From NCBI GenBank assembly GCA_965222225.1, contig CBDCTK010000002.1:4680643-4744642 (forward strand): DNA of 64,000 nucleotides. Reading direction: 5' to 3'. The notes beneath the pieces are model-generated. The model was not told the origin of the DNA. It ran no database searches and was given only the letters and a program-made list of their open reading frames with translations. Of this stretch, positions 46,416 to 62,738 are shown piece by piece; positions within the stretch are counted from its first letter, which is position 1, and each line of letters starts with the position of its first letter. The position numbers and the translations under genes were made by a program. This DNA is from Candidatus Poribacteria bacterium (GTDB taxonomy: Bacteria > Poribacteria > WGA-4E > JAJDTR01).

Positions 46416-48278
46416 CTACCGGGTCGCATGTGCCATAATCTCGGTCATGCGTGCGACAAACTCGGTCGGAGAGTCCATATTCCCGTCAATCAATAGCGCC
46501 CCTTCATAAACCTGCAGAATACAACTCTTGAGGAGCGACTCATCACCATTGTTTTCGTGAATGTGAGCCAGGTTCTTAATCAGCGGGTGAGAGGGATTAA
46601 TCTCAAGAATCTTCTTGGAGCCGGGGATATCTTGGTTCATCATTTTCATCATCCGTTCCATTTCTCGATCCATTCCGCTGGCTCCGACCACGAGGGTTGC
46701 CGCCGAATCGACAAGCCGCTTAGACTCGACCACATCCTCTACCTTATCACCAAGTGTTTCTTTGAATAGCGAAAAAAGCGACTTGGATTCATCCTCGGTT
46801 AAGCTATCCGCCTTGCTCTCTTCATCGGACTTAAGGTCAAGATCTGCGGTCTCGATTCCTTTTATCGGTTTTTCGTCGTAATCATGCAACTGCGGAATAT
46901 TAAAGATATCGGCTGGGTCAATGAAGAACAAGACTTCAATTCCCCTTTTCCTGAAATATTCCAGATTTGGATTTAGTTCCACCGCCGCTCTGCTCTCGCC
47001 AGTCAGGTAGTAAATCTCCGTCTGATCTTCCTGCATGCCAGCCACATAGTCCTTGAGCGAAGTGAGTTTCCCTTTTTCGGTTTTTGTGGATTCAAATCGC
47101 AAGAGGTCGATCAGTCGATCCCGGTTTCCAAAATCTGTGCTGAGTCCGGTTTTGAACAGCAACCCAAAGTTGGTGAAAAATTTGTCATACTTCTCTTGGT
47201 CATTCTTTGCCCAATCCTCCAGAAGCGACAAAATTCTTCCGGTAAGCACATTTTTGATTTTCCCCATTATCGGGCTGACTTGGGTAACTTCACGAGAAAC
47301 GTTTAACGGCAAATCTTCTGTATCCACTACCCCCGCGACGAAGCGCAAATACTCAGGCAGTAATTCCTTGCAGTCGTCTTGGATGAAGATTCTATTTGCA
47401 TAAAGTTGCAATGACTTCAGTTCCTCTCCCCTCAAAAAATCGAACGGGGCGGTTTCGGGCACGAAAACCATCGCCTTGAAATTAACCTGCCCCTCAATCG
47501 ACAAATGCAGATGTCCGAGTATCGGGTTGAAGTCGTTGGATATGAACTTATAAAATTCTTCTAAGTCTTCATCGGTCACTTCGTTTTTGTTTTTCTGCCA
47601 CAGTGCGCTTATGGTGTTTACCTGCTCGCCGTTGACATGAATTGAGAAGTCTGCGAAGTTGGAGTATTTCTTAATAATCTCGTTTACCCGGTATTCTTCA
47701 CTGAACTCCTTCGCATCGTCCTTTAGTTTGAACGAGATTTTCGTTCCTCGCTCCTCACGCGGGAATTCTTCAACGGTGAATTTGCTCGCTCCCGTCGATT
47801 CCCACCGATACCCCTTTGACCCTGGATCCGCATGTCGGGTTTCGATGACCACCTGATCAGTCACCATGAACACGGAATAAAAACCTATGCCGAATTGACC
47901 TATCATGTTCGCGTCGAAGGGTTTGCCCTCCTCTTTCAATCTCTCCAAAAATGCCACTGTGCCGGAACTTGCAATGGTGCCGATTCTGGAGACGAGATCT
48001 TCTTTCGTCATGCCGATGCCGGTGTCGGCAATCGAAAAGGTTTGTGTCTTCGAGTCAACACTGATGCTGATTCGCAAAGGGGCATTGGGACTTACAATGT
48101 TTTTATCCGTTAACTGTCTGAAACGCACCAGATTTAGAGCATCGGAAGCGTTGGAAATCACTTCGCGGAGAAAGACTTCGCTATGGCTGTAGAGAGAATG
48201 AACGATCAGATGAAGAAGTTGCTTCATCTCCGCTTGGTATTCAAATTCCTCTAACGCTTCAAGTTTGTCACTGGACAT
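46416..48278 (-). CDS. htpG: Molecular chaperone HtpG (Hsp90)
   Basis: GHKL Bergerat motifs (…VFLREVISNASDALNLVRF…, …IADTGIGMT…, …GQFGIGFYS…). The start is placed at ATG 48278 (MSSDKLEALEEFEYQAEMKQLL…), preceded by a GGAGGA RBS. The longer ORF to 48377 is not needed. Confidence 0.9.
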   Translation of the reverse strand: MSSDKLEALEEFEYQAEMKQLLHLIVHSLYSHSEVFLREVISNASDALNLVRFRQLTDKNIVSPNAPLRISISVDSKTQTFSIADTGIGMTKEDLVSRIGTIASSGTVAFLERLKEEGKPFDANMIGQFGIGFYSVFMVTDQVVIETRHADPGSKGYRWESTGASKFTVEEFPREERGTKISFKLKDDAKEFSEEYRVNEIIKKYSNFADFSIHVNGEQVNTISALWQKNKNEVTDEDLEEFYKFISNDFNPILGHLHLSIEGQVNFKAMVFVPETAPFDFLRGEELKSLQLYANRIFIQDDCKELLPEYLRFVAGVVDTEDLPLNVSREVTQVSPIMGKIKNVLTGRILSLLEDWAKNDQEKYDKFFTNFGLLFKTGLSTDFGNRDRLIDLLRFESTKTEKGKLTSLKDYVAGMQEDQTEIYYLTGESRAAVELNPNLEYFRKRGIEVLFFIDPADIFNIPQLHDYDEKPIKGIETADLDLKSDEESKADSLTEDESKSLFSLFKETLGDKVEDVVESKRLVDSAATLVVGASGMDREMERMMKMMNQDIPGSKKILEINPSHPLIKNLAHIHENNGDESLLKSCILQVYEGALLIDGNMDSPTEFVARMTEIMAHATR

Positions 48279-48905
48279 AATCGGAAAGATCCTCCTATTG
48301 TTGATGAAGTTATAGTTTATGCATGATTGTTGATTTTGAACACATACAATATACTGCCTTGGAAGCAGAATCGGCAATCAAATTGTTGGCGTCGGAAGGT
48401 AATTTAAAAGAATTGGCATCTACCCCACCGCAATCACAGAACATGAATCCTCGTAGAAGGCTTATCGTTACTCGACACTCACGGTCAGCGCGGAAAACCG
48501 TATCGTGAAGAAGCGTCCGCCTTCTGTTTCCTCTATGTGAATAGGACTTCCGTAGGGTACACCGTCAGTCTATCGTGTTCCGTCCGTGAGGACACATCAT
48601 TGGCAGCAGGTCGAACGCTTCGCATCAATCCTGGCAGGAATGTGGCGAACCAGGCGTTGTCAGACCAATTTCAGATAACTCGGACAAATCATCCCAGTCA
48701 CAGTCCAAGCAGAATAACTGGTTGTCGCCAATGGATTTAATTGAATTGCGTTCACAATTTGGACATAGCATTTTTTGACCTCCCGCCCAAGAAACGATGC
48801 GAATCTTATTGAGGTTGCAAGAGTTGAACTTGCAACGGCAGCAAGCAATTGAATCCACCCCGGCGCGAAATGGGGCATTGGGTGTAATGGAACGCCGTCA
48901 GTGAA

Positions 48906-50426
48906 TCATAGACTATCGAGTTCTTTAACAGCCTGGATGCCGCTATCTAACGCTTCAAAAAGCAGTGGTAATCGGCTATTGTCTACCCCGGCGTAGACTA
49001 GATTAGGTTCAGATCGACGCGGGTTCTTATCCCTGAATAGGTAATGAGGTTTAGGAACCGGCATTGCGTGTCCAAGCACCTTTATGAAAACCCGATCCAC
49101 CAAACTGCTAACCTTTCGATTAAAAAATAGGTCGATCGTCTCTACCGTCTTATGGACAATCTCCTGAGCGTTGTGCCGAATATTCGTAAGATACGGTCTC
49201 TGGTTGGGCTGGAAGCAGTAGTATGCCGTAAACACCCGTGAATCACCTACGCGAAGTTGAGAGGCGCTATCCACGAATCCCATGAAGGTCGCATCTTGGC
49301 TCAAGAACTCGTTCTGCCAAAACGCCTCCGCCCGGAGATTCTCCTTAAGAACGATGTTAAGCACCAACCAAGGCGCATATATGTTATCTTGAAAAAGATG
49401 GGCGTCGGGCGGAAACACATATTTTAGCGCATGTTTCCCTCCGGCGTAGATTACATTTCGTGCAAGGTAACGGTCAATCCGAGAGTTCTCAATATTTATT
49501 ACGGTAACTTCGAAGCCGTTCTCAACTCTCTGAATACGCCGCACCAAGCGATTTGTCTTGATATTATCGCTGGGCAACACCGCCGCCATCTTGTTGACAA
49601 AGTAAGTGTTCCCCGCCGCCGGCGAAAACAGTTCCACGGATTGCGTGTAGTAAGGTCTACAAGCATAGTAGTGGATTCCGGCGAGTGCAGAGACCGTCTC
49701 CGCGCCGGCGCCGTAGTCGTCCCTCATCTGGTAGTCAACCCCCTGTTTGAAGGATGGAGTTAATCTCAAAGTACGCTCAAGAAAGTCAAGAAAGCTTATT
49801 TCATCAAGCGACCATAAATCCTCCCGAATGATTCGCGTCGGCAGCTTCATCTCGCCCAGATAGGGAAGCACTAACTCCAAGAAATCAGTTTTGAGTTGCC
49901 CCGGTTCAAGGAGTTCCTCTCTTAATCCATTTGAGGTAAGGGTTTGGCCCTCCCGCTCGGCATTAATCAGATACTGTCGGTCGACAAAATTCCACGCCTC
50001 AACCAATTTATTGTAACGAATTACTCCCAGTTCTTCAAGGAAGTTTAAGGTTTCGCTGCCGTAATAGTTTGGGTAGGCTAACTCGTAATGCGCACCTTGT
50101 GAAAACACTTCACCGGCGTGAGATTCGCTCGCCGAAGTGCCGCCGAGTTGCGTGGATAATTCGCAGAGGACGAAGTCCCTGTCCCGGAGTTGGCATGCCG
50201 CCGATAGCCCGGAGATGCCGCCGCCCACGATAAGATAATCCGTAGAGAACGTGTTCCCTGTTGGCAACGCGGCGCTATCCAAGATTAAATGTCCCGCCCG
50301 CATGTCCGATTTGATGGATATCTCATACGCTTGCCGATTGGGCTTATCGGATGTTGAATCGCATGATTGACTGAGGATTCCTGCGAGGGCGAGTGAGGAA
50401 AGCTTAATGAACGTTCGACGGTTCAT
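48906..50426 (-). CDS. Tat-exported FAD-dependent oxidoreductase (amine-oxidase/phytoene-desaturase-like fold)
   Basis: Twin-arginine signal MNRRTFIKLSSLALAGILSQSC, then the dinucleotide motif DYLIVGGGISGLSAACQL and a second FAD contact near the C-terminus (…VYAGVDNS…). Confidence 0.6.
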   Translation of the reverse strand: MNRRTFIKLSSLALAGILSQSCDSTSDKPNRQAYEISIKSDMRAGHLILDSAALPTGNTFSTDYLIVGGGISGLSAACQLRDRDFVLCELSTQLGGTSASESHAGEVFSQGAHYELAYPNYYGSETLNFLEELGVIRYNKLVEAWNFVDRQYLINAEREGQTLTSNGLREELLEPGQLKTDFLELVLPYLGEMKLPTRIIREDLWSLDEISFLDFLERTLRLTPSFKQGVDYQMRDDYGAGAETVSALAGIHYYACRPYYTQSVELFSPAAGNTYFVNKMAAVLPSDNIKTNRLVRRIQRVENGFEVTVINIENSRIDRYLARNVIYAGGKHALKYVFPPDAHLFQDNIYAPWLVLNIVLKENLRAEAFWQNEFLSQDATFMGFVDSASQLRVGDSRVFTAYYCFQPNQRPYLTNIRHNAQEIVHKTVETIDLFFNRKVSSLVDRVFIKVLGHAMPVPKPHYLFRDKNPRRSEPNLVYAGVDNSRLPLLFEALDSGIQAVKELDSL

Positions 50427-50536: not shown

Positions 50537-53500
50537 TTATGCTGCCCAACGCTCCGACAAAACTTCGGCTTGCTCCAAGACGGTTTCAGCGGCTTTAGCT
50601 TGTTTATCGGGTGGATAGCCGTATTTCCGCAGAATTCGCTTCACCAATCGGCGCAGGTTGGCGCGGACGCTCTCCTTCATCGTCCAGTCGATGGTCACGT
50701 TGTTTCGGACAGTTTTCACAAGTTCAGCCGCAATAGTGCACAAGGTCTCATCTCCCAACACTTGCACGGCGCTGTCGTTGGTCTCAAGTGCGTCGTAGAA
50801 CGCCAATTCATCGCTCGAAAGCCCCAACTCCTCGCCGCGCTCTACCGCCTCACGCAACTCCCTTGCTGTTTGGATAAGCTCCTCAATCACCTGCGCGGCT
50901 TCTATTGTCCGGTTTTGATAAGCGCGAATTGATTGTTCCAACATCTCCGCGAATGACCGCGATCTTACGACATTCTGCCGTGAATGCGTCTTGATTTCAT
51001 CGTTGAGCAACTTATCCAAGAGTTCGACTGCCAGGTTCCTTTGCGGTAAGTCCCGCACCTCCGCGAGGAATTCGTCGGAAAGAACTGAGATATCGGGCTT
51101 CTCCAATCCGGCGGCGGCAAAGATGTCAACCACCCCTTCGGGAACGACAGCTCTTGATACCAACTGCTTGATTGCCAGGTCCGCCGCCTCGGACTGCGTT
51201 TCTTCTCTAGCCGTCAGCTTTTCCAAGACACCGCGCACCGCTTGGAAAAAGGCGACATCGTCGCGGATTTCAATTGCCCTTTCGTGCGGCACTACTAGCG
51301 AAAAGGCTTTGGAGAGCGCAGTGACCTCATTCAGTAGGCGGGTTTTGCCATCTTCCAAGCCCAAGATATGCTCTTGAGCGGCGGGCAGTAGCCTGAGGCG
51401 TTCCTCGGTGTTTCCGTCATCCCACGACGACCAATCTAATCCGTGGAACAGCCCACAGCAGATTTCGTGTTTTTCCATCATTACGGCAATGGCTTCGGCT
51501 TTATCAATGGATGGCTCCCCTTTTCCTCCGCTGTCAGTGTAGTCCGCCAATGCTCGCTTGAGATGGTAGCCAATCCCGATATAGTCCACAATAAGACCAC
51601 CGGGCTTTTCGCCGAAGACGCGATTGACGCGCGCGATGGCTTGCATAAGGGTGTGACCTCGCATCGGCTTGTCAACATACATCGTGTGAAGGCTAGGCGC
51701 ATCAAATCCGGTCAGCCACATGTCGCGGACAATCACAAACTTCAACGCATCATCGGGATTCTTGAACCGAACCGCCAGCTCTTCGCGCCGCGCTTTGTTG
51801 CGGATATGCGGTTGCCACGACTCGTCCTCCGACGCTTCGCCCGTCATTACAACCTTAATAATCCCCTGCGTGTCCTCCTCATCATGCCAACCCGGACGCC
51901 TTTCCACAATGGCGTTGTAGAGATCGACGCAGATACGGCGGCTCATGCAGACCACCATCGCTTTGCCGTCCATCGCATCCAACCGCTCCTCGAAATGCGT
52001 GATGATGTCATCGGCAACCAGAGCCAGACGCTTCTCCGTTCCGACCAGTGCCTCAAGTTGAGCCCATTTGGATTTGAGTCGCTCCTTGTGCCTTTCCTCC
52101 TCCCCTTCGGTCACCTCCTCAAATTCCGGGTCAACATGGGGCTTCTCGTTCTCGTCCAGCTCAATTTTGGCGAGTCGGCTCTCGTAGTAGATTCGGACAG
52201 TGGCACCGTCATCAACCGCTTGTTGGATATCATAGATGCTGATGTAGTCTCCGAATACGTTTCGGGTGTTGCGGTCCGTTCCCTCAATCGGGGTGCCGGT
52301 AAAACCGATAAATGAGGCGTTCGGAAGCGCGTCGCGCATGTGACGGGCAAATCCGTCAATAAAATCATACTGGCTGCGGTGGGCTTCGTCCGCAATGACC
52401 ACAATGTTCCGTCGATCGGGCAGTTCAGGCAAGCGGAGTTCTTCATCTTCGGGAAAGAACTTCTGCACCGTGGTAAAAACTACACCGCCCGAAGCAACTC
52501 TCAAGAGTTCGCGCAAATGTCCCCTGTCTCGCGCTTGTTCCGGCGTTTGTCGCAAGAGTTGGCTGCACCGAGCGAACGTACCGAACAGTTGATCGTCCAA
52601 ATCGTTGCGGTCGGTAATGACGACCAGTGTCGGGTTTCGCATCTCCGGGCGCCGGATGATACCCCCGGCGTAGAATGCCATAGTCAGGCTTTTGCCCGAA
52701 CCTTGCGTGTGCCAGATAACGCCGCAGCGTTTGTCCCCGTCTGGGCGCGACGCCTTCACGGTAGCATCGACCGCCGCTCTAACGGCGTGGAATTGGTGAT
52801 AACCGGCAATCTTCTTGGCAATCGTATCGCCTCCCGTTTCCTCAAAGACAATGAAATGACTAAGATAGTTTAGGAACCGCTCCTTGTCAAAGAGGCCCTT
52901 GATTGTTACCTCAATTTCCGGATCTGTTGATGCGGCTTCCGTTTCTCCCTCAATTGTTCGCCACGGCATGAACCGCTCCCGATCCGCCGTCAAAGAGCCG
53001 ACGCGGGCCTCCACCCCGTCGGAAACAACAAGCGCCTCGTTATACGTGAACAGCCGCGGAATTTCCCGCTTGTAGGTCTGAAGTTGGCGAAAAGCGGACC
53101 ACACGGTGGCGTTCTCGTCGGTCGGATTTTTGAGTTCAATCACGCCTAACGGGAGTCCGTTTACAAACAACACGATATCCGGTCGGCGTTCACTATTTTC
53201 CACGACGGTGAACTGGTTAACCGCCAGCCAGTCGTTGTTTTCGGGACTATCGAAATCCAACAACTGCACACGGTCACCGTGCATTGTGCCGTCGGAATCC
53301 CGATATTCGACCTCTATGCCATCAACCAACATGAGGTGAAATGTCCGATTGTTTTGAAACAATGAGGGGGAGTTTGGAGAATGGACTTTTTGAACGGCTT
53401 CCTCTTGCGATACGGCGGGGATGTTCGGATTCAGGCGGCCAACCGCATCGCGCAAACGACGCTCTAGCACCACGTCCTCGTATCTTGAGCGTTCAGCATC

Positions 53501-53605
53501 GGAAGTGTCCGGGCCGATGTCGGGACCGTGCAAGACGGAATAACCCATACCAGCGAGCCAATTCAGTGCGGCTGTTTCGATGTCGGATTCGGTGATGCTA
53601 TTCAT
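50537..53605 (-). CDS. hsdR: Type I restriction enzyme R subunit (endonuclease/helicase)
   Basis: N-terminal PD-(D/E)xK nuclease region, SF2 helicase motifs (GSGKSLTM Walker A; DEAH in …[10 protein letters not shown]…), 1022 aa, and the typical HsdR C-terminal helical domain. Confidence 0.9.
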
Positions 53606-53655: not shown

Positions 53656-54893
53656 TTAATGTGACGAGTTAACATGAAGGCTTTCACCCTGTATTGGACC
53701 ACCTGAATTGGTCAACGGATCCCCAACCTCAAAGAAACCCTCCATCCAGAGGTGTCCTAACTTCCCTCCTGTCTCCATGAATTGATGAATTCCGCGCATG
53801 TCCACCGTGCGTTTGCAAACCGTAAACCCCTCCTCATCTCGATACAGTACCCACACCTCGTCGGCGTGGAGCTCGTTGATAAAATAAGGAAATGGGTAGT
53901 AATCATGAGTTGAGACGAGGCTGACGCCCCACGGCACTCGTCTGTCAAACTAGGCAACAACCGTGGATGTAAGTGATTTTCAGGTTCTCCAATACCGATA
54001 AAGGGGGCAGGCTCTGGATCATGTAGCAGCGTGAGATACGAAAGCAACTTTAACGTGCCCTCCGAGGTAAACTTCGCCAAGATGGATTGCTCAAACGGTG
54101 CATCTTTTATCTGCAACAACAAGCGACCATCCGCCATCAGTTCTGCGTCTACCTTTTCTAGTCGTGGCACCTGATTTGACATAATTGAGAGAATCTTTCG
54201 CAAACGGCTTGGGTGCTGTTCTTTCAAATACTGGATAACGTTCGCCAGATTGTCTCCTGTTTCTGAAAGCTGCTCTCGCGGCCCCGTTGCTTCAACTCCG
54301 CGTGTGGCATCAATGGAAAGATGGGAGAGATGCCAGCCAGTAATGAAACGACGAAGGGGCCCAAGACGTGGGTAGCGCGACAATTGGCCAAGAGTGCTCG
54401 CAGCAAGTGTTGACGAATCATCAAACTGTTCATCGGTTTGCTCCGCTTCCTCATCTGGCATTTCACCCGCGATGACTCGTCCTGCGCCGTGACGAAAATC
54501 AAGAAAACGAAACGGCTTCCCCCGATTGCCGCGCCGCCAACTCATCCATTCGGATTCCACAAAGGGGCCCTGTACTCCTTCATCAATGGCTAGATGATAG
54601 GTGATAATTGGCATTCCCGGTTTCTCACGATATTTCAAATCAAATTCAATTGCTCCATCACTTCCCCGTGTTCGCAGATGCTTAAACCGCCCTCTTTTAT
54701 CCCAGGCACGGCGCAATCCGATTGTGAAACATTCGGAGAGAAACGCAAATACATCAAGTAGCGTGGACTTTCCACTGCCATTGGGACCCGAGAAGACTGA
54801 AAGCGGCGTTATTTTTCGTAATTGCACATCCCGCAGAGAGCGGTAATCTTTCACGCGTAATGACTCAATGCGGGGAACGGTTTGTTGCAGCAT
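53656..54893 (-). CDS. ABC-type AAA ATPase (AAA_15/AAA_21-like, OLD/abortive-infection-type); split by an apparent frameshift near 53890
   Basis: Start ATG 54893 (MLQQTVPRIESLRVKDYRSLRDV…). Walker A SGPNGSGKST, Walker B/D-loop …FIGIGEPENHLHP…, and the H-loop …SQLMITTH. The sequence then continues in another frame as (S)PYFINELHADEVWVLYRDEEG… (ORF 53656..53937), matching the usual TTHSPxLL…EVWVL continuation of this family. Confidence 0.6.
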
Positions 54894-54936
54894 CTGAATT
54901 GCCTCTATGGCTACCCTGACATGGCGACTATTTGTT

Positions 54937-56052
54937 TTACCCCTGTTGCGGCGTAGTATAGCGAGCAACAAATTTGCTACTGTCAATATCCGGCTGTCCT
55001 TGTCGGGCATAGAAGGAGGAGAAGCGCGCGACAATATCCTTTACAAAGAAAGGCGAAATCTGGATTGAGGGTTTTTCAAACTTTTCGTCGAATTCGTTTT
55101 TAGTCAGCGCGTTCATTTTTCTGAAATTAAGAAACCCACCGTCAAAAAAATCTGTTTTCGGCAACCAGTGGTAGTAAAATGTGTAATTGTTGTTGAATAC
55201 CGCCTTGAGTGTTTCTTTCGTCTTCTCCCTTTTCCTCTTCTCGTCGCGCATCCTCTTAACACTAACCAATGCCTTGTCTACAATATGATTTTCTTTTTCA
55301 ATCTCAACGAGGAGAATACGATCTGTCCTGAATTCACCGTTACTTTTGAAAACGAGATCGCACGCCGGACTCAACACCACGAAAGGCTGATCGCTCGTCT
55401 CGTCTTTCACAATACTCCCGGTTGTGATATTGCTCGACAACGGTGGATGGAGGTAGACCTCTTCTGGAAAACACCGTTCGTCACCTTCCTCAAGCAGTTG
55501 AAATAAGTGATTCAAGGTGTATCGGAGAAGAGCCTTTTCGGTTCGCTCTGAATCTTCTTTTCCATAAGAAATCCAGGTTTGTATCTGTGACCGAAGGTTT
55601 TTGAGAAAAACTTCATTTAGTCGCTGTTCGATTAGTCCTCTGCCACCCATGATGTGGGTTAATCCCGTATCAAAAATCTCCCAAAATCGGTCTAGAAGTT
55701 CGTCATACCGAGTTTTCCCTTTTTGGAAAACGCTAAGGAGCATGATTTTTTTATTCAAAGTGTAATCTGAATTGCCCGGGTTTGCCGTAAATATGGCAAT
55801 TGGAATGCGGAAAAACGACTCTTCGATCTTTTTGATAACCTGATTCCCCTCATCACCTTCATTCGCTAGTTTTAAATCGATAATCGCACCATCAAAAGAG
55901 TTGTCCAACAGTTCTAATGCTTTATCAAGAGTTTTGCATCCAACCGGTTCAATATCTCGATTCTTTTCATCAACGTATCTTTCCACAGAATCCTTGCACG
56001 CCTCAAGATCTTGTTCGTCGTCTTCCACGATTAGCAACCGTAACTTGCTCAT
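54937..56052 (-). CDS. Receiver (REC) domain protein with an uncharacterised ~250-aa C-terminal domain (candidate effector)
   Basis: N-terminal CheY-like receiver: acidic pocket LLIVEDDE, phospho-acceptor Asp in …DGAIIDLKL…, and a conserved T/K (…IAIFTANPG…). Residues ~120-371 carry no motif I recognise. The start ATG overlaps the upstream kinase stop (ATGA). Confidence 0.6.
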   Translation of the reverse strand: MSKLRLLIVEDDEQDLEACKDSVERYVDEKNRDIEPVGCKTLDKALELLDNSFDGAIIDLKLANEGDEGNQVIKKIEESFFRIPIAIFTANPGNSDYTLNKKIMLLSVFQKGKTRYDELLDRFWEIFDTGLTHIMGGRGLIEQRLNEVFLKNLRSQIQTWISYGKEDSERTEKALLRYTLNHLFQLLEEGDERCFPEEVYLHPPLSSNITTGSIVKDETSDQPFVVLSPACDLVFKSNGEFRTDRILLVEIEKENHIVDKALVSVKRMRDEKRKREKTKETLKAVFNNNYTFYYHWLPKTDFFDGGFLNFRKMNALTKNEFDEKFEKPSIQISPFFVKDIVARFSSFYARQGQPDIDSSKFVARYTTPQQG

Positions 56053-58226
56053 TTACCATTCTCCATCTTGGGCTGAAGTCTGAAATAGGCGCCTTCATCG
56101 GACTCAAAGGCTTTCAACTCAAGACCGTTTCGCTCTGCGGCTTCAGAGGCTATCGCCAGCCCAAGCCCCGTTCCGTCCGGTTTGGTGGAAAACTCAGGTT
56201 CAAAGATGACTTCATTTTCGATGAGGCTCGGTTCAATTCCCGGTCCGCTATCTCGATAGTCAATATGGGACAGAGAGTTACCATCGGTCACGAGTTCGAT
56301 TTTAATTTGCCGTTTGGTTCCTTTCTTTTGGCTCATCCAATAAAGACTGTTGTCGATAAGATTTGTGAAAACCACGTAGATGTCTTGAGACCAAGCGGAG
56401 AATTTAAAGCTGTCAGTACCTCTGATTTCGGTAGATACATCTTCGGATTTCATCTCGTTTTCAAAAACTGAGAGAGTATTCTCTATTGTCTTCTTCAACT
56501 CCAGTGGTTTTTTGGCGGCACGTTTTCCCGCGGCTAGTGGATTAAGTCTTCCGAAGAGTTTCACGAAAATCTCCATATTTTCCTCAACACCATCGGCAAT
56601 CGACAGCATTTTTTCAAGTTTTCCCAGATCCCCGGTTTCCTGAAATCTTTCTCTCCAGTATCTGAGATTCGGTATTTGGTTCCGAAAGTAGCTGAGCGGT
56701 TGGCTGCCTTCATGGACTATGACATTAAGGATTTTCCCTAGAGTGGCTTGCCCTTGGTAAACCCTAAGAGCTTGCCTGATTTCATTAGCATCCCTGCCCT
56801 TATCTTTTTCTACCTGGCCAACGATTTCAATAATTCGATCGATGGTTGGTTGATTGCACCCATCTTCGGTGAGTTGCCTCCGTATGTTCCGTTTCAACGC
56901 ATCAAAGGAGAAAAGCCGTCCCAGCTCCCGTTCCACCTTGATAGCAGGCCGACTCAATCCTGCTTTTCTTCTGTACTCATAACGCCGCCTTTCCAGTTGC
57001 CTGATGACCGCCAGTGTGACTTCCTTCAGCCGATTGAACGCCTCATTCTCTTTAAGCCCGTCCCGAGCGCTTTTTTCCTCCAAGCCGGACCACTCGACCG
57101 AATCAATGTGCACATATCCTATGACTTGATTGTTAGCAATACAGAGTGACGGATTCTGTACGCGTCTCGCGTTCAGTTTCAACCAGTCAAAATCGGCATC
57201 GCCAAGCGGTCGGATGCGGAAGCCGTTCCGATAAACGCCGATACCGTTGTATGCATTCAGAAGCTGTCTCGCCTGATTTTTCCCGACATAGTTGCCCGAT
57301 TCCTCCTTTAGTCCTCGTCCAATCAAAGATTCAATGGCATCGTTGTCGCGGTCATACACACAGATTTCAATTTGAAACTCGCCGCAGCCAGTAGAATTTT
57401 CAAAATCAAATGACACTTCCTCCCTTATATCAAAGTCGATCTGTACGTCGGGAACGTTACGGGCTTTCTGTGATGAGTACGTCAGAAAACCTTTACCATT
57501 TTTTCCGATGTTCCCCGAGATCCTGTAGTCATAGAGATCGAAAAGTAAATAGGGTTCGATCTCTTTCTCAAAGTCCTCCACGCCCGGAAAACCCCGAACT
57601 TTCAAGTTTATACGAAATTCATCATCCTTAAAGACGCTACTCACAGGTGATTTTAGTTTCTTCAACTCAAACTGGAGCTCCTCAAACCGTTTCTGATCCC
57701 ATTCGGCGAGAAGCTGATTATTTCCATTGATGGTCAGTCGTGTGCCTGGTGACTCCGATACCTTCGTTGTTTCAATGGGAATTCCCACGTCATCTAGATA
57801 TTCAGCAGACTCGAATTTGTTCCATTCAAAAGATGCCGTAGTTTTCTCTCCTTCTGGAGTCACAGTTTCGAAAAACAAATCTGTGCCGAGAATGGATGCC
57901 GCATACCGTCCCACACCCTTATTTCCTTGCATTACCCTTCCCCCACGACTGATGCGTTTGTCAAATTTGTCCCGCGTTGACGGCACCATCCATTTGTCGA
58001 TGACATCGTCCCTCGACATCCCGTGACCGTGATCTGAGATAATGATAGAATATCCACTGCGAGTAGGAGATTTCTTGAATTCCACCTGCACATCCGGAGA
58101 GTCTGCATCATACGCGTTTTTTACGAGTTCGACAACAGCCGCAGAATTGTCGTGAATTAGGTCTTTTCCGATAGTCAGAACGTGCCGCCCCGCGGGCCTA
58201 ATTTTATGAGTTGTATTGGCGTTCAT
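56049..58226 (-). CDS. Cytoplasmic histidine-kinase-like protein with an additional N-terminal Hsp90/MutL/MORC-type GHKL ATPase module
   Basis: N-terminus (start ATG 58226, GAGGAGG RBS): GHKL N-box/G-boxes …AVVELVKNAYDA…, …IIISDHGHGMS…, …GNKGVGRYAAS…. The middle has an H-box-like VHEGSQPLSYF. The C-terminus is a canonical HATPase_c: N-box NLIDNSLYW, G1 DSGPGI, G2 GTGLGLAI. No TM helices. Confidence 0.6.
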   Translation of the reverse strand: MNANTTHKIRPAGRHVLTIGKDLIHDNSAAVVELVKNAYDADSPDVQVEFKKSPTRSGYSIIISDHGHGMSRDDVIDKWMVPSTRDKFDKRISRGGRVMQGNKGVGRYAASILGTDLFFETVTPEGEKTTASFEWNKFESAEYLDDVGIPIETTKVSESPGTRLTINGNNQLLAEWDQKRFEELQFELKKLKSPVSSVFKDDEFRINLKVRGFPGVEDFEKEIEPYLLFDLYDYRISGNIGKNGKGFLTYSSQKARNVPDVQIDFDIREEVSFDFENSTGCGEFQIEICVYDRDNDAIESLIGRGLKEESGNYVGKNQARQLLNAYNGIGVYRNGFRIRPLGDADFDWLKLNARRVQNPSLCIANNQVIGYVHIDSVEWSGLEEKSARDGLKENEAFNRLKEVTLAVIRQLERRRYEYRRKAGLSRPAIKVERELGRLFSFDALKRNIRRQLTEDGCNQPTIDRIIEIVGQVEKDKGRDANEIRQALRVYQGQATLGKILNVIVHEGSQPLSYFRNQIPNLRYWRERFQETGDLGKLEKMLSIADGVEENMEIFVKLFGRLNPLAAGKRAAKKPLELKKTIENTLSVFENEMKSEDVSTEIRGTDSFKFSAWSQDIYVVFTNLIDNSLYWMSQKKGTKRQIKIELVTDGNSLSHIDYRDSGPGIEPSLIENEVIFEPEFSTKPDGTGLGLAIASEAAERNGLELKAFESDEGAYFRLQPKMENGK

Positions 58227-58389
58227 AACTGATTGCCTCCTCTTTTCCGCGGTGTTTAATCCCATGAGGTTTAGTCCGTAGCACAAACGATTGAAAAGTC
58301 AATTTGCTTGAATGCCGGCTGAATCATACCGTGAACGTATCTAGAGATTAAGAAATGATGCAGGGACTAGATACACCAAACAGCGGAGA

Positions 58390-59403
58390 TTATATCAAGT
58401 CAAAGAGATGCTGATGCGTAATTTCCGTATGGAACCAAGCTCCATAGGCACTGCGCAACCAGATTTCGGACGTACGAATCCAATCTCTCCAAGCATGCTC
58501 CATTTGTGCACGTTCCACATTCAAGACGCTCCAGAGCATCGGCAGCGACTGCGGCTTCTGAATTAGTAGAGAAATCGCACGTTGGTTTACTTCGGTGCCC
58601 TCAGACACAAATGTCAACGGAATCTCCAAGTAGGGATTGAAATTTGAGGGTAGACTTTCCTCATTGCCTGAAGCAATGTTTGCCGCTAGTTCATGAATAT
58701 GCAGTGCCAGATAATACGCAACTAGTGAAGCACGGTATTCAAATTCATCGCCGAATATGTGTGATAACCACTCCCATCCTGGCCTTTCATACGCTCCGGC
58801 CAAATATTTCCAACCTTTTACGCAATTTCCACCAGAATTACCACTAATCGACTCGGCGTACCCCCTTAATTCACTTCTTTGCCATAGATAAAGGTGCTTT
58901 GATGCATCTGCAACAGGAATCTTCGTTCGTGCAAGATCTAGGGCAAGGTCGAGTTGACCTGTTAACAGGCTAAGCCCTCCGTGGAGACTGTGGTAGACAT
59001 ACCCTAGTACATCAGGAATGTTAGACCATGTTGTGTTACTAGTACGGTTCCATCCCGGGATGTTCATCAAATCATAAATCAAAGACTTTTGATCCTTAAG
59101 TTCCTCTTTGCAGGATTCAACTCCCATTAAGGCAACAGAAATTAAGGGGGAGATGACATTGACGCCACCGTCTACAATCTGAAACAACTTCTCGAAATCC
59201 GGTTCTTGTCCATCCAACTCCCTTTCTCGCCATTTTACCAAGGCTTTGAGCACACTTGGTTTAATTCGTTTCATGAGTTGACGCCACCCAAGCACATCTC
59301 CCGCACGAGCAAGTTCAAATGCTACTGAATAAGCGTCGGATGCCGATTCAACGCACTCCGGGATTTCAGGTAATTGGGCGAAGATTTTAGGATATTCATC
59401 CAT
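58390..59403 (-). CDS. Hypothetical protein (337 aa) in the hsdS-hsdR insert
   Basis: Predicted all-helical protein with no recognised family. It has a C-terminal R-x4-H (…ERAQMEHAW…) reminiscent of HEPN-type signatures, but this is weak. Confidence 0.35.
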   Translation of the reverse strand: MDEYPKIFAQLPEIPECVESASDAYSVAFELARAGDVLGWRQLMKRIKPSVLKALVKWRERELDGQEPDFEKLFQIVDGGVNVISPLISVALMGVESCKEELKDQKSLIYDLMNIPGWNRTSNTTWSNIPDVLGYVYHSLHGGLSLLTGQLDLALDLARTKIPVADASKHLYLWQRSELRGYAESISGNSGGNCVKGWKYLAGAYERPGWEWLSHIFGDEFEYRASLVAYYLALHIHELAANIASGNEESLPSNFNPYLEIPLTFVSEGTEVNQRAISLLIQKPQSLPMLWSVLNVERAQMEHAWRDWIRTSEIWLRSAYGAWFHTEITHQHLFDLI

Positions 59404-59470: not shown

Positions 59471-59731
59471 TCAATCAACGTGAATCTCCCCTGACAAAAG
59501 TTTCGGCAGCAGTGCCTCTCGAATTTGGGAAAGAGTGTGTGATTGATGAATGTTTTCGATAATTCTCCCAATGAGTGGTCGTATTAAATCGCTGTATTTT
59601 TGAGCGATTTCAAGTTGGGGCAGCACGAATTCATACTTTGACATGTCTCTCCAATTGGTTCGTGGCATTCTTGTACCCGTGGAATGAGCGTCAGTATAAG
59701 CAACGAATTCGTCACAGGACACAATCCCCAA
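59471..59731 (-). pseudogene. hsdS: Detached 3' fragment of hsdS (end of the second target-recognition domain plus the conserved C-terminal helix)
   Basis: …SQIREALLPKLLSGEIHVD is the conserved HsdS C-terminal coiled-coil motif. It is in a different frame from the main hsdS ORF and separated from it by ~185 nt. Confidence 0.5.
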
Positions 59732-59916
59732 AACAACATCGAACCATTCTGATTTAATCGGCTGGACAACTAGAATGTCGGTTGAGCAAACCCCATCGGT
59801 CGGCGCAACGCCGACCTTGTGAAAATAAGGTCGAAGTTTCCCAAAGAGGATTTCACCCTTTCTGAATCGAGATTTATTGCTGCCGATTCCGTCGGCAGTT
59901 TGCCATTCAGAGAGAG

Positions 59917-61131
59917 CTATACTCCGCTTGACATATGCTCTAATCCGATATAAACGTCGCTTGAGTCGATTTGGTTAACGTTTGCACTACGTCGAACATT
60001 TTGTGCAATTTCTCCGAGTGTTCCAACCTCCCACCCCTCCGGAATCTTCCCCAACGGCGAATCTTGAAAAGCAGAAGGGAATATGGTGGCGGTTTCCGCG
60101 TCCATGCCAACGGGCTCCCGCCCCTCCATCTTTGCCCGCACGGGATCTAAATCCACAAACCACGACTTGAAGATTGCCTTTGCCATCGCCTCCAGCGTCT
60201 CGTTCATCTGCCGATTAAGTTCGATCTTGTCGTCAAGTGAGCCTAGGATGTTGGCAATCCGGCGTTGCTCAGGAAGAGGTGGTAATGCAACAAGAAAAGA
60301 TTCAATGTGCGCTTTGGTAAGCGCTTTTCTTGTCCCTCCAGAATCGTGACCTAGCACGTAGGCTTTAACCCGCGGAGCACTCAAGTATTTTTGAAGGAAA
60401 GTGCTATTTAACCTATCAGAAGTTCGTATAACGGCAACATGTTGATTCACTCTCGCTGGTAGGGTCCATTTTGGAACAACGCAGCAACGAGCAACTGAAT
60501 CTCCTGTGATGTTCAAAAGCACATCATCTTCTTGTATATCTACCCGCCGTAATTTATATGCTGCAGATTCATCAATGTGGGCTAATCCATCTCTACTGAA
60601 TTCATGATCGTAGACGTTTTGGCTACGGATCAAACTCACTCCTTCCGATTTATAGACGTTCTTCCCGCCTCTAGGCGTCGCGCCAGTGCTTATAAATGAC
60701 GTTACGTCCGCTAAACGAACAACCTCCCAACCGGTAGGCGGCGCTCCTAGGGGTAGTGATTTTAACAATAGCTCATTTATTTTGGCACTTTGATTCTGGG
60801 TATTTTTTGAATTCGTGCATTCACCTGCAGTCTTCGCTTGGCGTATTACCTCATATTCCTCAGCAATCACGTGCTTGAACCCATCTGATAGCACATGCCA
60901 ATCTAACACATCAACCCGAATTGGAAGGTCGGATTCCTCGAATGCCTCTTTCAACTGACGCATGCGCCTTAGGCTGAACGGCTCACTACCGACAACTGCA
61001 AGATCTAGGTCTGAATAATCCTTTGCTGTCCATGTCATCCGTGATCCATAGGCGCGAACCTCGCATTCGGGGGCATGTTCCGTCAGTATGCGTTGAACTG
61101 TTTCAAGATATTTGGGATTAAGGTCAATCAT
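59917..61131 (-). CDS. hsdS: Type I R-M specificity subunit HsdS (truncated in TRD2) with an in-frame N-terminal MNT-type nucleotidyltransferase domain
   Basis: aa 1-98 are a minimal nucleotidyltransferase (…[24 protein letters not shown]…VDVLDWH…). From ~aa 120 it is HsdS (…[18 protein letters not shown]…, central conserved …[44 protein letters not shown]…). It ends ~45 aa into the second TRD. The start overlaps the hsdM stop (ATGA). Confidence 0.65.
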
Positions 61132-62738
61132 TGTGTGCTTTTATGCCCGAACATTCTCAGACTATGCCCAATTGCCTCGTCCTGTCGTCTTGCCTCTGCC
61201 ATCTGATCCGCCAGTCGTTCCGTCAAGAGGGCTATTTTCTCCTCAAACGGCTCGTCATCGTCCTCCTGAGCCTCGGCGCCGACGTAACGTCCGGGGGTCA
61301 ACACATTTCCGTGCTCGTGTATCTCTTCCAAGCTGGTGCTCTTGCAGAAACCCGGGATGTCCGAATATTCACCCGCTCCCTCGTCGCTGCGCCAAGCGTG
61401 ATAGGTGCTGGCAATGCGGGTTACGTCTTCTTCACTGAGTTCCCGGTGCACACGGTCAATCATGGCGCCGAGTTTCCGGGCGTCAATGAACAGCGTTTCC
61501 TTCCTCCGCTTTCGAAAACGAGAATCCTCTTTATTTCGAGCGAGAAACCAAAGGCACACGGGTATCTGCGTCGAATAGAACAGTTGCCCCGGCATCGCGA
61601 CCATGCAATCGACCAAGTCGGCTTCAATGATATTCTTGCGGATTTCGCCCTCGCTGGTAGTGTTGGAACTCATCGAACCGTTTGCCAGCACGAATCCGGC
61701 GATGCCATCGGGCGCGAGGTGATGGATGAAGTGTTGTACCCACGCAAAGTTGGCGTTTCCTGTTGGAGGCACCCCGTAAACCCAGCGCCTGTCCTCACGC
61801 AGTCGCTCGCCTCCCCAGTCGCTGCTATTGAACGGCGGATTGGCGAGGATGTAATCAACTTTCAGGTCGGGATGAAGTTCGCGGTGAAAACTATCGGCGT
61901 GCTCAACCCCAAGATTGGCGTCAATGCCGCGAATGGCGAGGTTCATCTGCGCCAGTTGCCAAGTGGTCGGGTTGGACTCCTGTCCGAAGATTGAGATATC
62001 GTCGCGTCCTCCGCCGTGCGCTTCAACAAAGGCTTCACTTTGGACGAACATGCCGCCCGACCCACAGCACGGGTCGTGCACTCGTCCTTTGTAGGGCGCA
62101 AGCATCTCCACCAGCACCCCCACCACGCAGCGTGGCGTGTAGAACTGGCCGCCTCTCTTGCCTTCTGCGCTGGCAAATTGTGAGAGAAAGTATTCGTAAA
62201 CCCTACCCAAGATGTCCTTCGATCGATTCTCCTCCTCTCCCAAACCGATTGTGCCAATCAGGTCAACTAGCTCGCCAAAGCGACGTTTGTCAAGCATCGG
62301 GCGGGCGAAGTTCTTTGGCAGAACACCTTTAAGACGAGGGTTCTCTCCTTCAATGGCACCCATGGCTTTGTCAACTAGCGTGCCTATTTCCGGTGTTTTG
62401 GCGCGGGCTTGCAGATAGGACCAGCGTGCTTCTGTCGGGACGTAGAAGATGTTTTCCGCAAGGTATTCATCTCGGTCTTCCACAAACTCGTAACGAAAGG
62501 ATTCTTCTTCAAGATAATATTCACTCTCAGAATTAGCGGATTGTTTAAGTAGAAAAGCGTGTCGTTCCTCAAAACGGTCCGAGATGTACTTGAGGAAAAT
62601 CAACCCCAATACGACGTGTTTGTATTCCGCGGCATCAAGATTGTTGCGGAGCTTGTCGGCGGCTTGCCACAAGGTGGCTTCAAAACCGAGCGTCGCCCCG
62701 TTTCCGTTTGGTTTTGACTTTCTCTTGTTTCTTGCCAT
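61128..62738 (-). CDS. hsdM: Type I R-M N6-adenine DNA methyltransferase subunit
   Basis: HsdM N-terminal helical domain, SAM motif I (…[13 protein letters not shown]…), and catalytic motif IV NPPF (…[14 protein letters not shown]…); 536 aa. Confidence 0.9.

Follow-up and report, generated by a model that had tools for sequence, protein, structure and literature searches.

The DNA analyzed here, a 64-kb stretch of a Candidatus Poribacteria genome (contig CBDCTK010000002.1) referred to below as the window, carries on its minus strand a Type I restriction-modification (R-M) locus that houses two adjacent genes, one for a soluble histidine kinase-like protein and one for a receiver-effector protein. 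We interpret this kinase-receiver pair as a two-gene operon in which a paraMORC-type ATPase head on the kinase would sense DNA or R-M status, and phosphotransfer from His505 of the kinase to Asp59 of the receiver would switch a toxin-like effector domain, and we give this interpretation a probability of roughly one half. That the pair is an immune module is probable. The functional unit is the two-gene operon at 54937–58226, not a set of four genes, and its architecture places it with a kind of gene pair that has been reported before from computational work. What is new here is the delimitation to two genes, the prediction of a toxin fold for the effector, the finding that no other recurrent nuclease occurs in the cassette that usually contains the pair, and the selection detected on the window's orphan pair, which has no linked methyltransferase.

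The kinase and the receiver-effector

The reading frame of the kinase extends upstream to a TTG codon (Table 1), and its true start is probably the methionine at residue 21 (58226), because an identical (100%) database protein of 725 residues, P0121, begins at that position. Searches of Pfam identified HATPase_c_3 (66.6 bits) and HATPase_c (68.6 bits) in the protein, and NCBIfam identified a histidine kinase (HK) core of the AtoS/ZraS type. The kinase profile matched solved class-I HKs (E 4e-13, in an alignment that takes in the DHp domain) together with the N-terminal domains of HtpG, MORC and MutL. Residues 40–185 matched the N-terminus of the BbrUII/HgiDII restriction enzymes (NF050001) at 49.5 bits, the cut-off of that family being 550, and the head also matched the Type II restriction endonuclease (REase_II) models of PADLOC with scores far under the family cut-offs. 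The kinase is not a member of the BbrUII/HgiDII family, as its score falls short of that cut-off; the match to NF050001 is confined to the N-terminal GHKL part and does not reach the C-terminal nuclease part of the model.

Across 72 kinase homologues His505-Glu506 was invariant, both sets of ATPase motifs were conserved, and the N, G1 and G2 boxes were canonical. The middle region of the protein, between the two ATPase modules, was also strongly conserved, with the motifs YRNGFRIRPLGD..DW and EKSARDG. The window kinase retains all the invariant residues, both those of the two ATPase sites and His505-Glu506. No transmembrane segment was found in it (maximum Kyte-Doolittle value over 19 residues, 0.78), in agreement with an initial annotation of this locus that had described the kinase as cytoplasmic. 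In total, 2941 homologues of the kinase were present in the database.

The receiver domain of the window protein retains the acidic pair Glu10/Asp11, Asp59, Thr89 and Lys111, so that the phosphotransfer residues of both proteins are intact. The pairing of a cytoplasmic kinase with a receiver-effector in the initial annotation was upheld. The invariant residues of the helical linker that follows are T129, G130, T132, G136, E142, W160, R177 and H182, and those of the C-terminal domain are Cys231-Asp232, Thr243, His295, Asn309, Lys338 and the segment from Arg343 to Pro354. Receiver homologues numbered 1631 at E<=0.001 and fell into more than 1600 clusters at 90% identity. The effector domain formed 696 clusters at 50% identity and was almost always fused to a receiver.

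The output part of the receiver protein (residues ~125–371) had no Pfam, NCBIfam or PADLOC match even at E<=10, as had been noticed earlier. The accompanying statement that the effector fold is unrecognizable had to be revised on the basis of AlphaFold2 (AF2) models, for which the mean confidence (pLDDT) was 81.8 for the full-length protein and 75.8 for the C-terminal domain alone. Two structure-comparison methods assigned the predicted C-terminal domain to the MazF/Kid/CcdB toxin fold, and in a Foldseek comparison with the PDB the best 31 matches all belonged to MazF/Kid/CcdB families (probability up to 0.99, TM-scores of 0.58–0.66 when normalized to the target). The C-terminal domain is thus predicted to share the MazF/PemK/Kid/CcdB toxin fold. 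No helix-turn-helix (HTH) or other DNA-binding domain was found in the receiver output at the level of sequence or of fold, and the models indicate an output of enzyme or toxin type rather than a DNA-binding regulator. Compared with MazF/PemK/Kid and CcdB (and with ToxN/CptN), the domain has no significant sequence similarity and possesses an inserted helical hairpin and a helical linker of ~65 residues. It also differs from MazF/CcdB toxins in having no antitoxin gene; its control would run via the fused receiver domain. One protein of 571 residues, P0271, joins a partial C5 DNA methylase (residues 105–244) to the effector domain (residues 343–566) with neither kinase nor receiver; it could be the product of a fusion by deletion or of misassembly.

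The stop codon of the kinase and the start codon of the receiver share the sequence ATGA at 56052–56049 (GGT AAA TGA / ATG AGC), which is the overlap given in the initial annotation, and the two genes are translationally coupled. To place the pair in a wider context, 80 loci were analyzed on one-genome-per-species contigs from many phyla, and the receiver gene was callable in 76 of these. In 73 of the 76 the receiver gene was immediately preceded by the kinase gene, an adjacency that puts their pairing far beyond chance. Carriers included Poribacteria, Latescibacterota, Desulfobacterota, Chloroflexota, Bacteroidota, Yersinia, Serratia and Enterobacter, Chlorobaculum, and a Methanoperedenaceae archaeon. 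A pair with 26% identity occurs with a convergent dcm gene on conjugative plasmids of Campylobacter jejuni. The GC content of the window's kinase and receiver genes is 0.42–0.47 versus 0.54–0.55 in hsdR and hsdM, which fits acquired cargo. Together, the spread over many bacterial phyla and an archaeon and the low GC content show that the element is mobile. There was no match to the pair among GenBank phages, and only two matches were found among 2.9 million viral contigs. In the archaeon (Candidatus Methanoperedenaceae, PGYG01000020) the order is C5 methyltransferase, kinase, receiver and a small open reading frame (ORF) of Vsr-like position and size, with ~51–66% identity to the bacterial versions, which points to inter-domain transfer of the cassette.

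Genomic context and relation to described systems

The usual arrangement around the pair was C5-methyltransferase – kinase – receiver – Vsr. A C5 cytosine methyltransferase was found beside the pair in 54 of the 76 loci, and in 50 it was at offset -2, directly upstream of the kinase and co-directional with it. This methyltransferase is highly conserved (62–70% identity across phyla), and its stop codon overlaps the kinase start in L003, the single locus where the source gene calls allowed the check. A Vsr-like gene was located downstream in 36 loci, and 27 of the 32 scanned matched Pfam Vsr. No further recurrent nuclease family was detected around the pair in the 76 loci, and the canonical cassette thus has the pair where a restriction enzyme would be expected.

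In 19 loci from unrelated phyla, Type I genes flanked either the pair or the cassette as a whole, and near the pair there was a Type III-like N6/N4 methyltransferase in 17 loci and a ResIII helicase in 10. The check named in the initial annotation, whether homologues of the pair co-occur and sit in defence islands, had a positive outcome in these loci, in which the adjacent genes were almost always beside R-M genes. Directly downstream of the kinase-receiver genes, many loci of Poribacteria and of other carriers have a Type III-like pair made up of an N6_N4 methyltransferase of ~540 residues and a ResIII helicase of ~860 residues (e.g., L010:10079-14358).

In 22 loci there was no C5 methyltransferase in the fetched flank; 13 of these are from Poribacteria and several of the others stop at a contig edge. 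Two of the loci that have no C5 methyltransferase, L039 and L084, lie either within a Type I locus or next to one. For the window, which has no such gene either, comparison with Poribacteria orthologues gave ratios of non-synonymous to synonymous substitution (dN/dS) of 0.13–0.16 for the kinase and 0.16–0.20 for the receiver, with 0.08–0.10 for hsdR. These values indicate that the orphan pair has been kept by purifying selection, and the low dN/dS, together with the retention of all invariant residues, argues that the pair is functional without a linked methyltransferase.

A gene pair of this architecture was first reported, computationally, by Bellieny-Rabelo, Pretorius and Moleleki (2021, Genome Biol Evol; PMC8011034) as the HEF_HK/Response_reg_2 pair. 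Their kinase-like gene contains HATPase_c_3, a DHp domain with His followed by Glu, and HATPase_c, and its head was traced to paraMORC ATPases; the receiver-like neighbour has no other known domain and its C-terminal part was given no fold. They reported 91.6% linkage of the two genes, a C5 methylase upstream, Vsr downstream, enrichment of Type I and Type II R-M genes and no transmembrane segments, treated the C5 methylase and Vsr as frequent context and not as obligatory, and proposed a regulatory link to R-M (PMC8011034). The window pair agrees with this description in its kinase domains, in the receiver Asp, Thr and Lys and acidic pair, in adjacency and in solubility, and the two sets of carriers share Yersinia, Geobacter, Campylobacter-type plasmids and the family Chlorobiaceae. 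The window copy departs from the usual context of HEF_HK/Response_reg_2 in that C5 methylase and Vsr are missing and a Type I locus surrounds it. Based on the architecture, context and shared genera, we assign the window pair, from its sequence characters, to the HEF_HK/Response_reg_2 kind, and its earlier designation as an undescribed module does not stand. The models PF19191 (HEF_HK) and PF19192 (Response_reg_2) gave no match for the window, Yersinia, Chlorobaculum, Enterobacter or Campylobacter proteins, in a Pfam copy that may omit both models.

PADLOC 2.0.0 has no system model for the kinase or the receiver. The suggestion of the initial annotation that the locus might match no named system held for these two proteins; the neighbouring ATPase matches HEC-01A (see below). 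The distinction it drew from Detocs (DtcA, DtcB, DtcC) was also sustained. Compared by architecture, the two have in common a cytoplasmic kinase and a His-Asp phosphorelay whose last component is an effector fused to a receiver; the window pair differs in consisting of two genes with no stand-alone buffer receiver of the DtcB type, in having a GHKL ATPase as sensor where Detocs has TPR repeats, in having a MazF/CcdB-like effector in place of a nucleoside phosphorylase (PNP) fold, and in its link to DNA methyltransferases, which is not a known feature of Detocs.

The paraMORC/GHKL restriction enzymes and Shedu nucleases (HgiDII/BbrUII; paraMORC3/VcSduA) resemble the kinase in having an N-terminal MORC-like GHKL ATPase with intact motifs. 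In those proteins the head is fused to a nuclease, whereas here it is fused to an HK core and the output belongs to a second protein, the receiver. In the study of Iyer et al. (2008, PMC2292703), paraMORC ATPases were assigned to R-M systems that also contain C5 methylases and Vsr, and a kinase fusion was not described; the GHKL-headed Shedu protein VcSduA has been shown experimentally to be a defence protein (PMC12137116).

Proposed mechanism and alternatives

In the mechanism that we propose, the kinase would be a soluble dimer whose paraMORC-type GHKL head and middle region act as the sensor, probably through ATP-dependent engagement of DNA, by analogy with the heads of HgiDII/BbrUII-type and other paraMORC restriction enzymes and of Shedu. 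Sensing would cause the kinase to autophosphorylate at His505 through its C-terminal catalytic domain, and the phosphate would pass to Asp59 of the receiver, a chemistry suggested by the conservation of these residues. The phosphorylated receiver would then rearrange or dimerize and switch the C-terminal MazF/Kid/CcdB-fold domain, which would arrest the cell or the invader via RNA or a conserved cellular target. MazF-type toxins act as dimers, and receiver domains commonly dimerize upon phosphorylation. We speculate that a dimeric toxin joined to a phospho-dimerizing receiver would make a simple switch.

In canonical cassettes the trigger would be DNA that the linked C5 methyltransferase has not marked. 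This methyltransferase most likely marks self DNA, since in most genomes the cassette has no candidate for a restriction activity other than the pair. An extension of this idea, which we offer tentatively, is that the pair is the restriction arm of a signalling R-M system, in which the methyltransferase marks self, the kinase reads unmarked DNA, and a phosphorelay to a toxin-fold effector (MazF/CcdB-like, or an unrecognized Cys-His enzyme) takes the place of cutting; the Poribacteria variants would have been rewired, without a methyltransferase of their own, in Type I loci.

Several observations weigh against a sensor kinase that switches a toxin-like effector. The toxin-fold call comes from AF2 models of moderate confidence (pLDDT 76–82), in which the most conserved loop of the effector (PACDL) is modelled at pLDDT <50. 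Sequence support for the fold is absent, there being no PemK/CcdB Pfam match and no PDB profile match, and hhalign gave P=0.13 for the effector versus MazF sequences. The catalytic Arg and Thr of MazF are not conserved in the effector, in which the residue corresponding to MazF Arg29 varies. Phosphorylation may either activate or silence the effector. A tblastn search of the full 64-kb window identified no C5 methyltransferase or Vsr, and likewise no N6/N4 methyltransferase, so self-marking as in the canonical cassette fails here unless an unlinked methyltransferase exists outside the window. In addition, our survey of the literature found no experimental study of the pair and no experiment that shows defence, toxicity or phosphotransfer in this kinase-receiver family.

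The constant company of R-M genes, whose type varies from locus to locus (C5 in 54, Type I in 19 and Type III-like in 17), could also be understood if the pair were a guard of the adjacent R-M system, similar to PrrC or RloC, with the kinase watching a C5, Type I or Type III complex and firing the effector once that complex is disabled by a phage anti-restriction protein. Copies with no C5 methyltransferase, among them those of the window, L039 and L084, are enclosed by Type I loci or adjoin them, and the interval between hsdS and hsdR is the classical position of PrrC. We nevertheless consider a guard function doubtful, since the dominant layout is a tight operon with one highly conserved C5 methyltransferase in which there is no restriction enzyme to be guarded, the homologues of the sensor head are GHKL modules that handle DNA and not a known protein-binding sensor, and the Type I system of the window has a broken hsdS. 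The pair resembles PrrC and RloC, in which an ABC ATPase is fused to an anticodon-nuclease domain, in its location between hsdS and hsdR; none of its domains is found in them, and there was no match to PrrC or RloC models in PADLOC or NCBIfam.

The predicted toxin-type fold raises the further alternative of an addiction element, similar to a toxin-antitoxin system, in which constitutive phosphorylation by the kinase keeps the receiver-toxin silent (or active) and loss of the island or depletion of ATP frees the toxin, with the effect of stabilizing the R-M island. Such a role would agree with the presence of the pair on conjugative plasmids and islands beside HicAB/VapD-type genes and with its persistence in the window as neighbouring cargo decays. 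It is improbable all the same, because a sensor of 725 residues with two ATPases would be an elaborate antitoxin, there is no explanation in it of why the pair is so strictly linked to a methyltransferase and Vsr, and no labile antitoxin-like partner is present.

The canonical kinase core and receiver, and the R-M enrichment around the pair both in the published survey and in the loci analyzed here, might be taken to indicate an ordinary two-component regulator of the expression of adjacent R-M genes, as was suggested in PMC8011034. This is poorly supported, and we regard it as highly improbable, given that the output has no HTH and no DNA- or RNA-polymerase-binding domain by sequence or fold and its best fold matches are toxins, that the effector domain is almost always with a receiver and not with other outputs typical of regulators, and that the pair is retained where the surrounding R-M genes differ or decay.

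If the phosphorelay-switched pair is indeed an immune module, it would be a second phosphorelay defence architecture after Detocs and the first in which a MORC-like DNA ATPase is joined with His-Asp signalling and an output of toxin fold. The pair is common and is missed by PADLOC, with the consequence that its loci are now annotated as housekeeping two-component or hypothetical genes; the names given by PGAP are 'sensor histidine kinase' for the kinase and 'hypothetical protein' or 'response regulator' for the receiver. The canonical four-gene cassette of Yersinia, Serratia or Enterobacter is directly clonable, which makes it testable whether a two-component system can read out the methylation state.

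The surrounding Type I island

The practical outcome for the window is a corrected gene model, with a two-gene unit in a partly decayed cargo region (Table 1). The order of the genes on the minus strand was as initially annotated, with domain assignments backed by Pfam, PADLOC and NCBIfam, and the intergenic gaps across the locus measured 185, 67, 163, 43 and 50 nt, within the range of 43 to 185 nt given before. The position of the pair in a cargo slot of the Type I R-M locus was likewise confirmed. What that annotation had not included was the frameshift in the ATPase gene, the lost TIR domain of the 337-residue protein and the lost target-recognition domain of hsdS.

Table 1. Features of the kinase-receiver operon and of the Type I locus around it, in window coordinates.
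Feature	Position	Strand	Basis
Core gene 1, soluble kinase-like protein, 725 residues from Met21: GHKL head, conserved middle region, DHp, HK catalytic ATPase	56049-58226	minus	Pfam, NCBIfam, P0121, motif conservation
GHKL (paraMORC-type) ATPase head, residues ~25-175; Bergerat motifs ELVKNAYD (58107-58130) and DHGHG (58020-58034)	57702-58154	minus	Pfam, NCBIfam, profile search, conservation
DHp and catalytic ATPase core, residues ~480-722; His505-Glu506 (56709-56714), N box NLIDN (56349-56363), G1 box DSGPG (56238-56252)	56061-56789	minus	NCBIfam, profile search, conservation
Core gene 2, receiver-effector, 371 residues; start overlaps kinase stop	54937-56052	minus	Homologues, AF2 model, dN/dS
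Receiver (REC) domain, residues 1-128; Glu10-Asp11 (56020-56025), phospho-acceptor Asp59 (55876-55878), Thr89 (55786-55788), Lys111 (55720-55722)	55669-56052	minus	
Helical linker, residues 129-190; two long helices after invariant TGLT..GG	55483-55668	minus	AF2 secondary structure
Effector domain, residues ~191-371; predicted MazF/Kid/CcdB-like barrel with inserted helical hairpin	54940-55482	minus	AF2 model
Invariant effector motifs: PACDL; His295; NFRK; RFSSFYARQGQP	55354-55368; 55168-55170; 55117-55128; 54991-55026	minus	
Kinase-like ORF, full extent to TTG at 58286	56049-58286	minus	ORF call
hsdM, Type I N6-adenine methyltransferase, intact	61128-62738	minus	ORF call, Pfam, PADLOC
hsdS with N-terminal nucleotidyltransferase (MNT) fusion, broken: 404-residue part and 86-residue 3' fragment	59917-61131; 59471-59731 (overall 59471-61131)	minus	ORF calls, Pfam, PADLOC, relative comparison
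337-residue protein, SEFIR/TIR C-terminal domain without TIR; variable cargo slot, outside the pair	58390-59403	minus	69.5% identity to L001:6149-7657 product
ABC-type ATPase, HEC-01A homologue, frameshifted; outside the pair	53656-54893	minus	PADLOC, tblastn, nucleotide alignment
hsdR, Type I restriction subunit, intact	50537-53605	minus	ORF call, Pfam, PADLOC

The closest relative found was locus L090, whose receiver is 93% identical to that of the window. Its gene order is hsdM, a SLFN/HATPase_c_4 gene, an 81-residue ORF, hsdS, SEFIR/TIR, kinase, receiver, an intact ATPase, hsdR, amine oxidase and HSP90. Based on these intact counterparts, the window is a decayed copy of an L090-type island in which the only whole genes left are hsdM, kinase, receiver and hsdR.

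The window ATPase matched PADLOC HEC-01A at 426 bits over its N-terminal part (54893–~53895) and at 71 bits in an overlapping C-terminal ORF of 93 residues (53656–53937). The match covers the first ~330 residues in one frame and the last ~65 in the shorter ORF, and tblastn placed the change of reading frame at residue ~330–365. Nucleotide alignment with the 95.6%-identical L090 gene located a 1-nt deletion near 53890/53891, at which one C is missing (CATTCTCC -> CATT-TCC). HEC-01 is a candidate system of an ATPase and a TOPRIM protein that gave no protection when tested (bioRxiv 10.1101/2024.01.29.577857). A TOPRIM-like DUF4276 partner is present in L002 and L035, and no TOPRIM/DUF4276 homologue was found anywhere in the 64-kb window. 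The window therefore does not hold a HEC-01 system, which comprises an intact HEC-01A and an intact TOPRIM partner.

The 337-residue protein is 69.5% identical to residues 180–502, the C-terminal two thirds, of a 502-residue SEFIR/TIR protein (L001:6149-7657), and at its position L090 has an intact SEFIR/TIR gene of 505 residues. No trace of a TIR domain was found upstream of the gene in the window, and the protein had no Pfam, PADLOC or NCBIfam match. The TIR-less form is present in at least two assemblies. The SEFIR/TIR proteins of ~500 residues (L001:4437-5978, L001:6149-7657 and L090:5079-6596) have a conserved C-terminal domain of ~325 residues, also with no Pfam, PADLOC or NCBIfam match. 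In L015 an insertion sequence (IS) element with an rve integrase (L015:6755-7531) is between the SEFIR/TIR gene and the kinase.

The initial annotation had included the ATPase and the 337-residue protein in a cassette of three to four genes. The genes are co-directional with short gaps, a SEFIR/TIR gene is directly upstream of the kinase in every Type I-embedded Poribacteria locus, and the next gene after the receiver is the ATPase in the window, L001/L006, L002, L035, L080 and L090, at a gap of ~43–50 nt where measured (window, L001/L006 and L002). The SEFIR/TIR gene accompanies the pair in 5 of the 76 loci, all of them orthologous Poribacteria loci sharing flanks, and co-occurrence in orthologous loci represents a single event. 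The ATPase is found with the pair in only 3 loci among the 76, and is missing from the orthologous loci L007, L015 and L049 and from at least 70 others. Based on their rarity beside the pair and the separate membership of the ATPase in HEC-01, the two genes are separate cargo and not components of the pair. With neither family accompanying the pair outside Poribacteria, the ATPase frameshifted and lacking its partner, and the 337-residue gene a remnant without its TIR domain, the larger cassette is poorly supported and we give it almost no credence.

The hsdS gene has also decayed. It matches the HsdS of a relative over residues 1–374, after which the second target-recognition domain is missing and the 3' piece continues in a different frame. 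The hsdS gene call of L090 is unbroken (400 residues) and differs in length and partly in sequence from that of the window. A Pol-beta-type (MNT-like) nucleotidyltransferase is present at the N-terminus of the window HsdS (59917–61131, minus strand; Pfam Polbeta/NTP_transf_2, residues ~8–96). This MNT-HsdS fusion recurs in relatives (L001), and the Specificity_I model of PADLOC (PDLC03138) includes it. The stop codon of hsdM overlaps the start of hsdS in the window at 61128–61131.

Close relatives have an extra gene with SLFN_AlbA_2 and HATPase_c_4 domains between hsdM and hsdS (L001:896-2656 and L090:1788-3542) that is absent from the window, and this indicates that cargo varies at three or more places in the Type I locus, namely hsdM-hsdS, hsdS-kinase and receiver-hsdR. 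On the hsdR side, genes for HSP90/HtpG (46416–48377) and an amine-oxidase-family protein (48906–50426) flank the locus on the minus strand (46416–50426 overall). The same synteny is kept in the Poribacteria relatives L001, L002, L007, L015 and L090, which indicates that the Type I island occupies a fixed chromosomal site.

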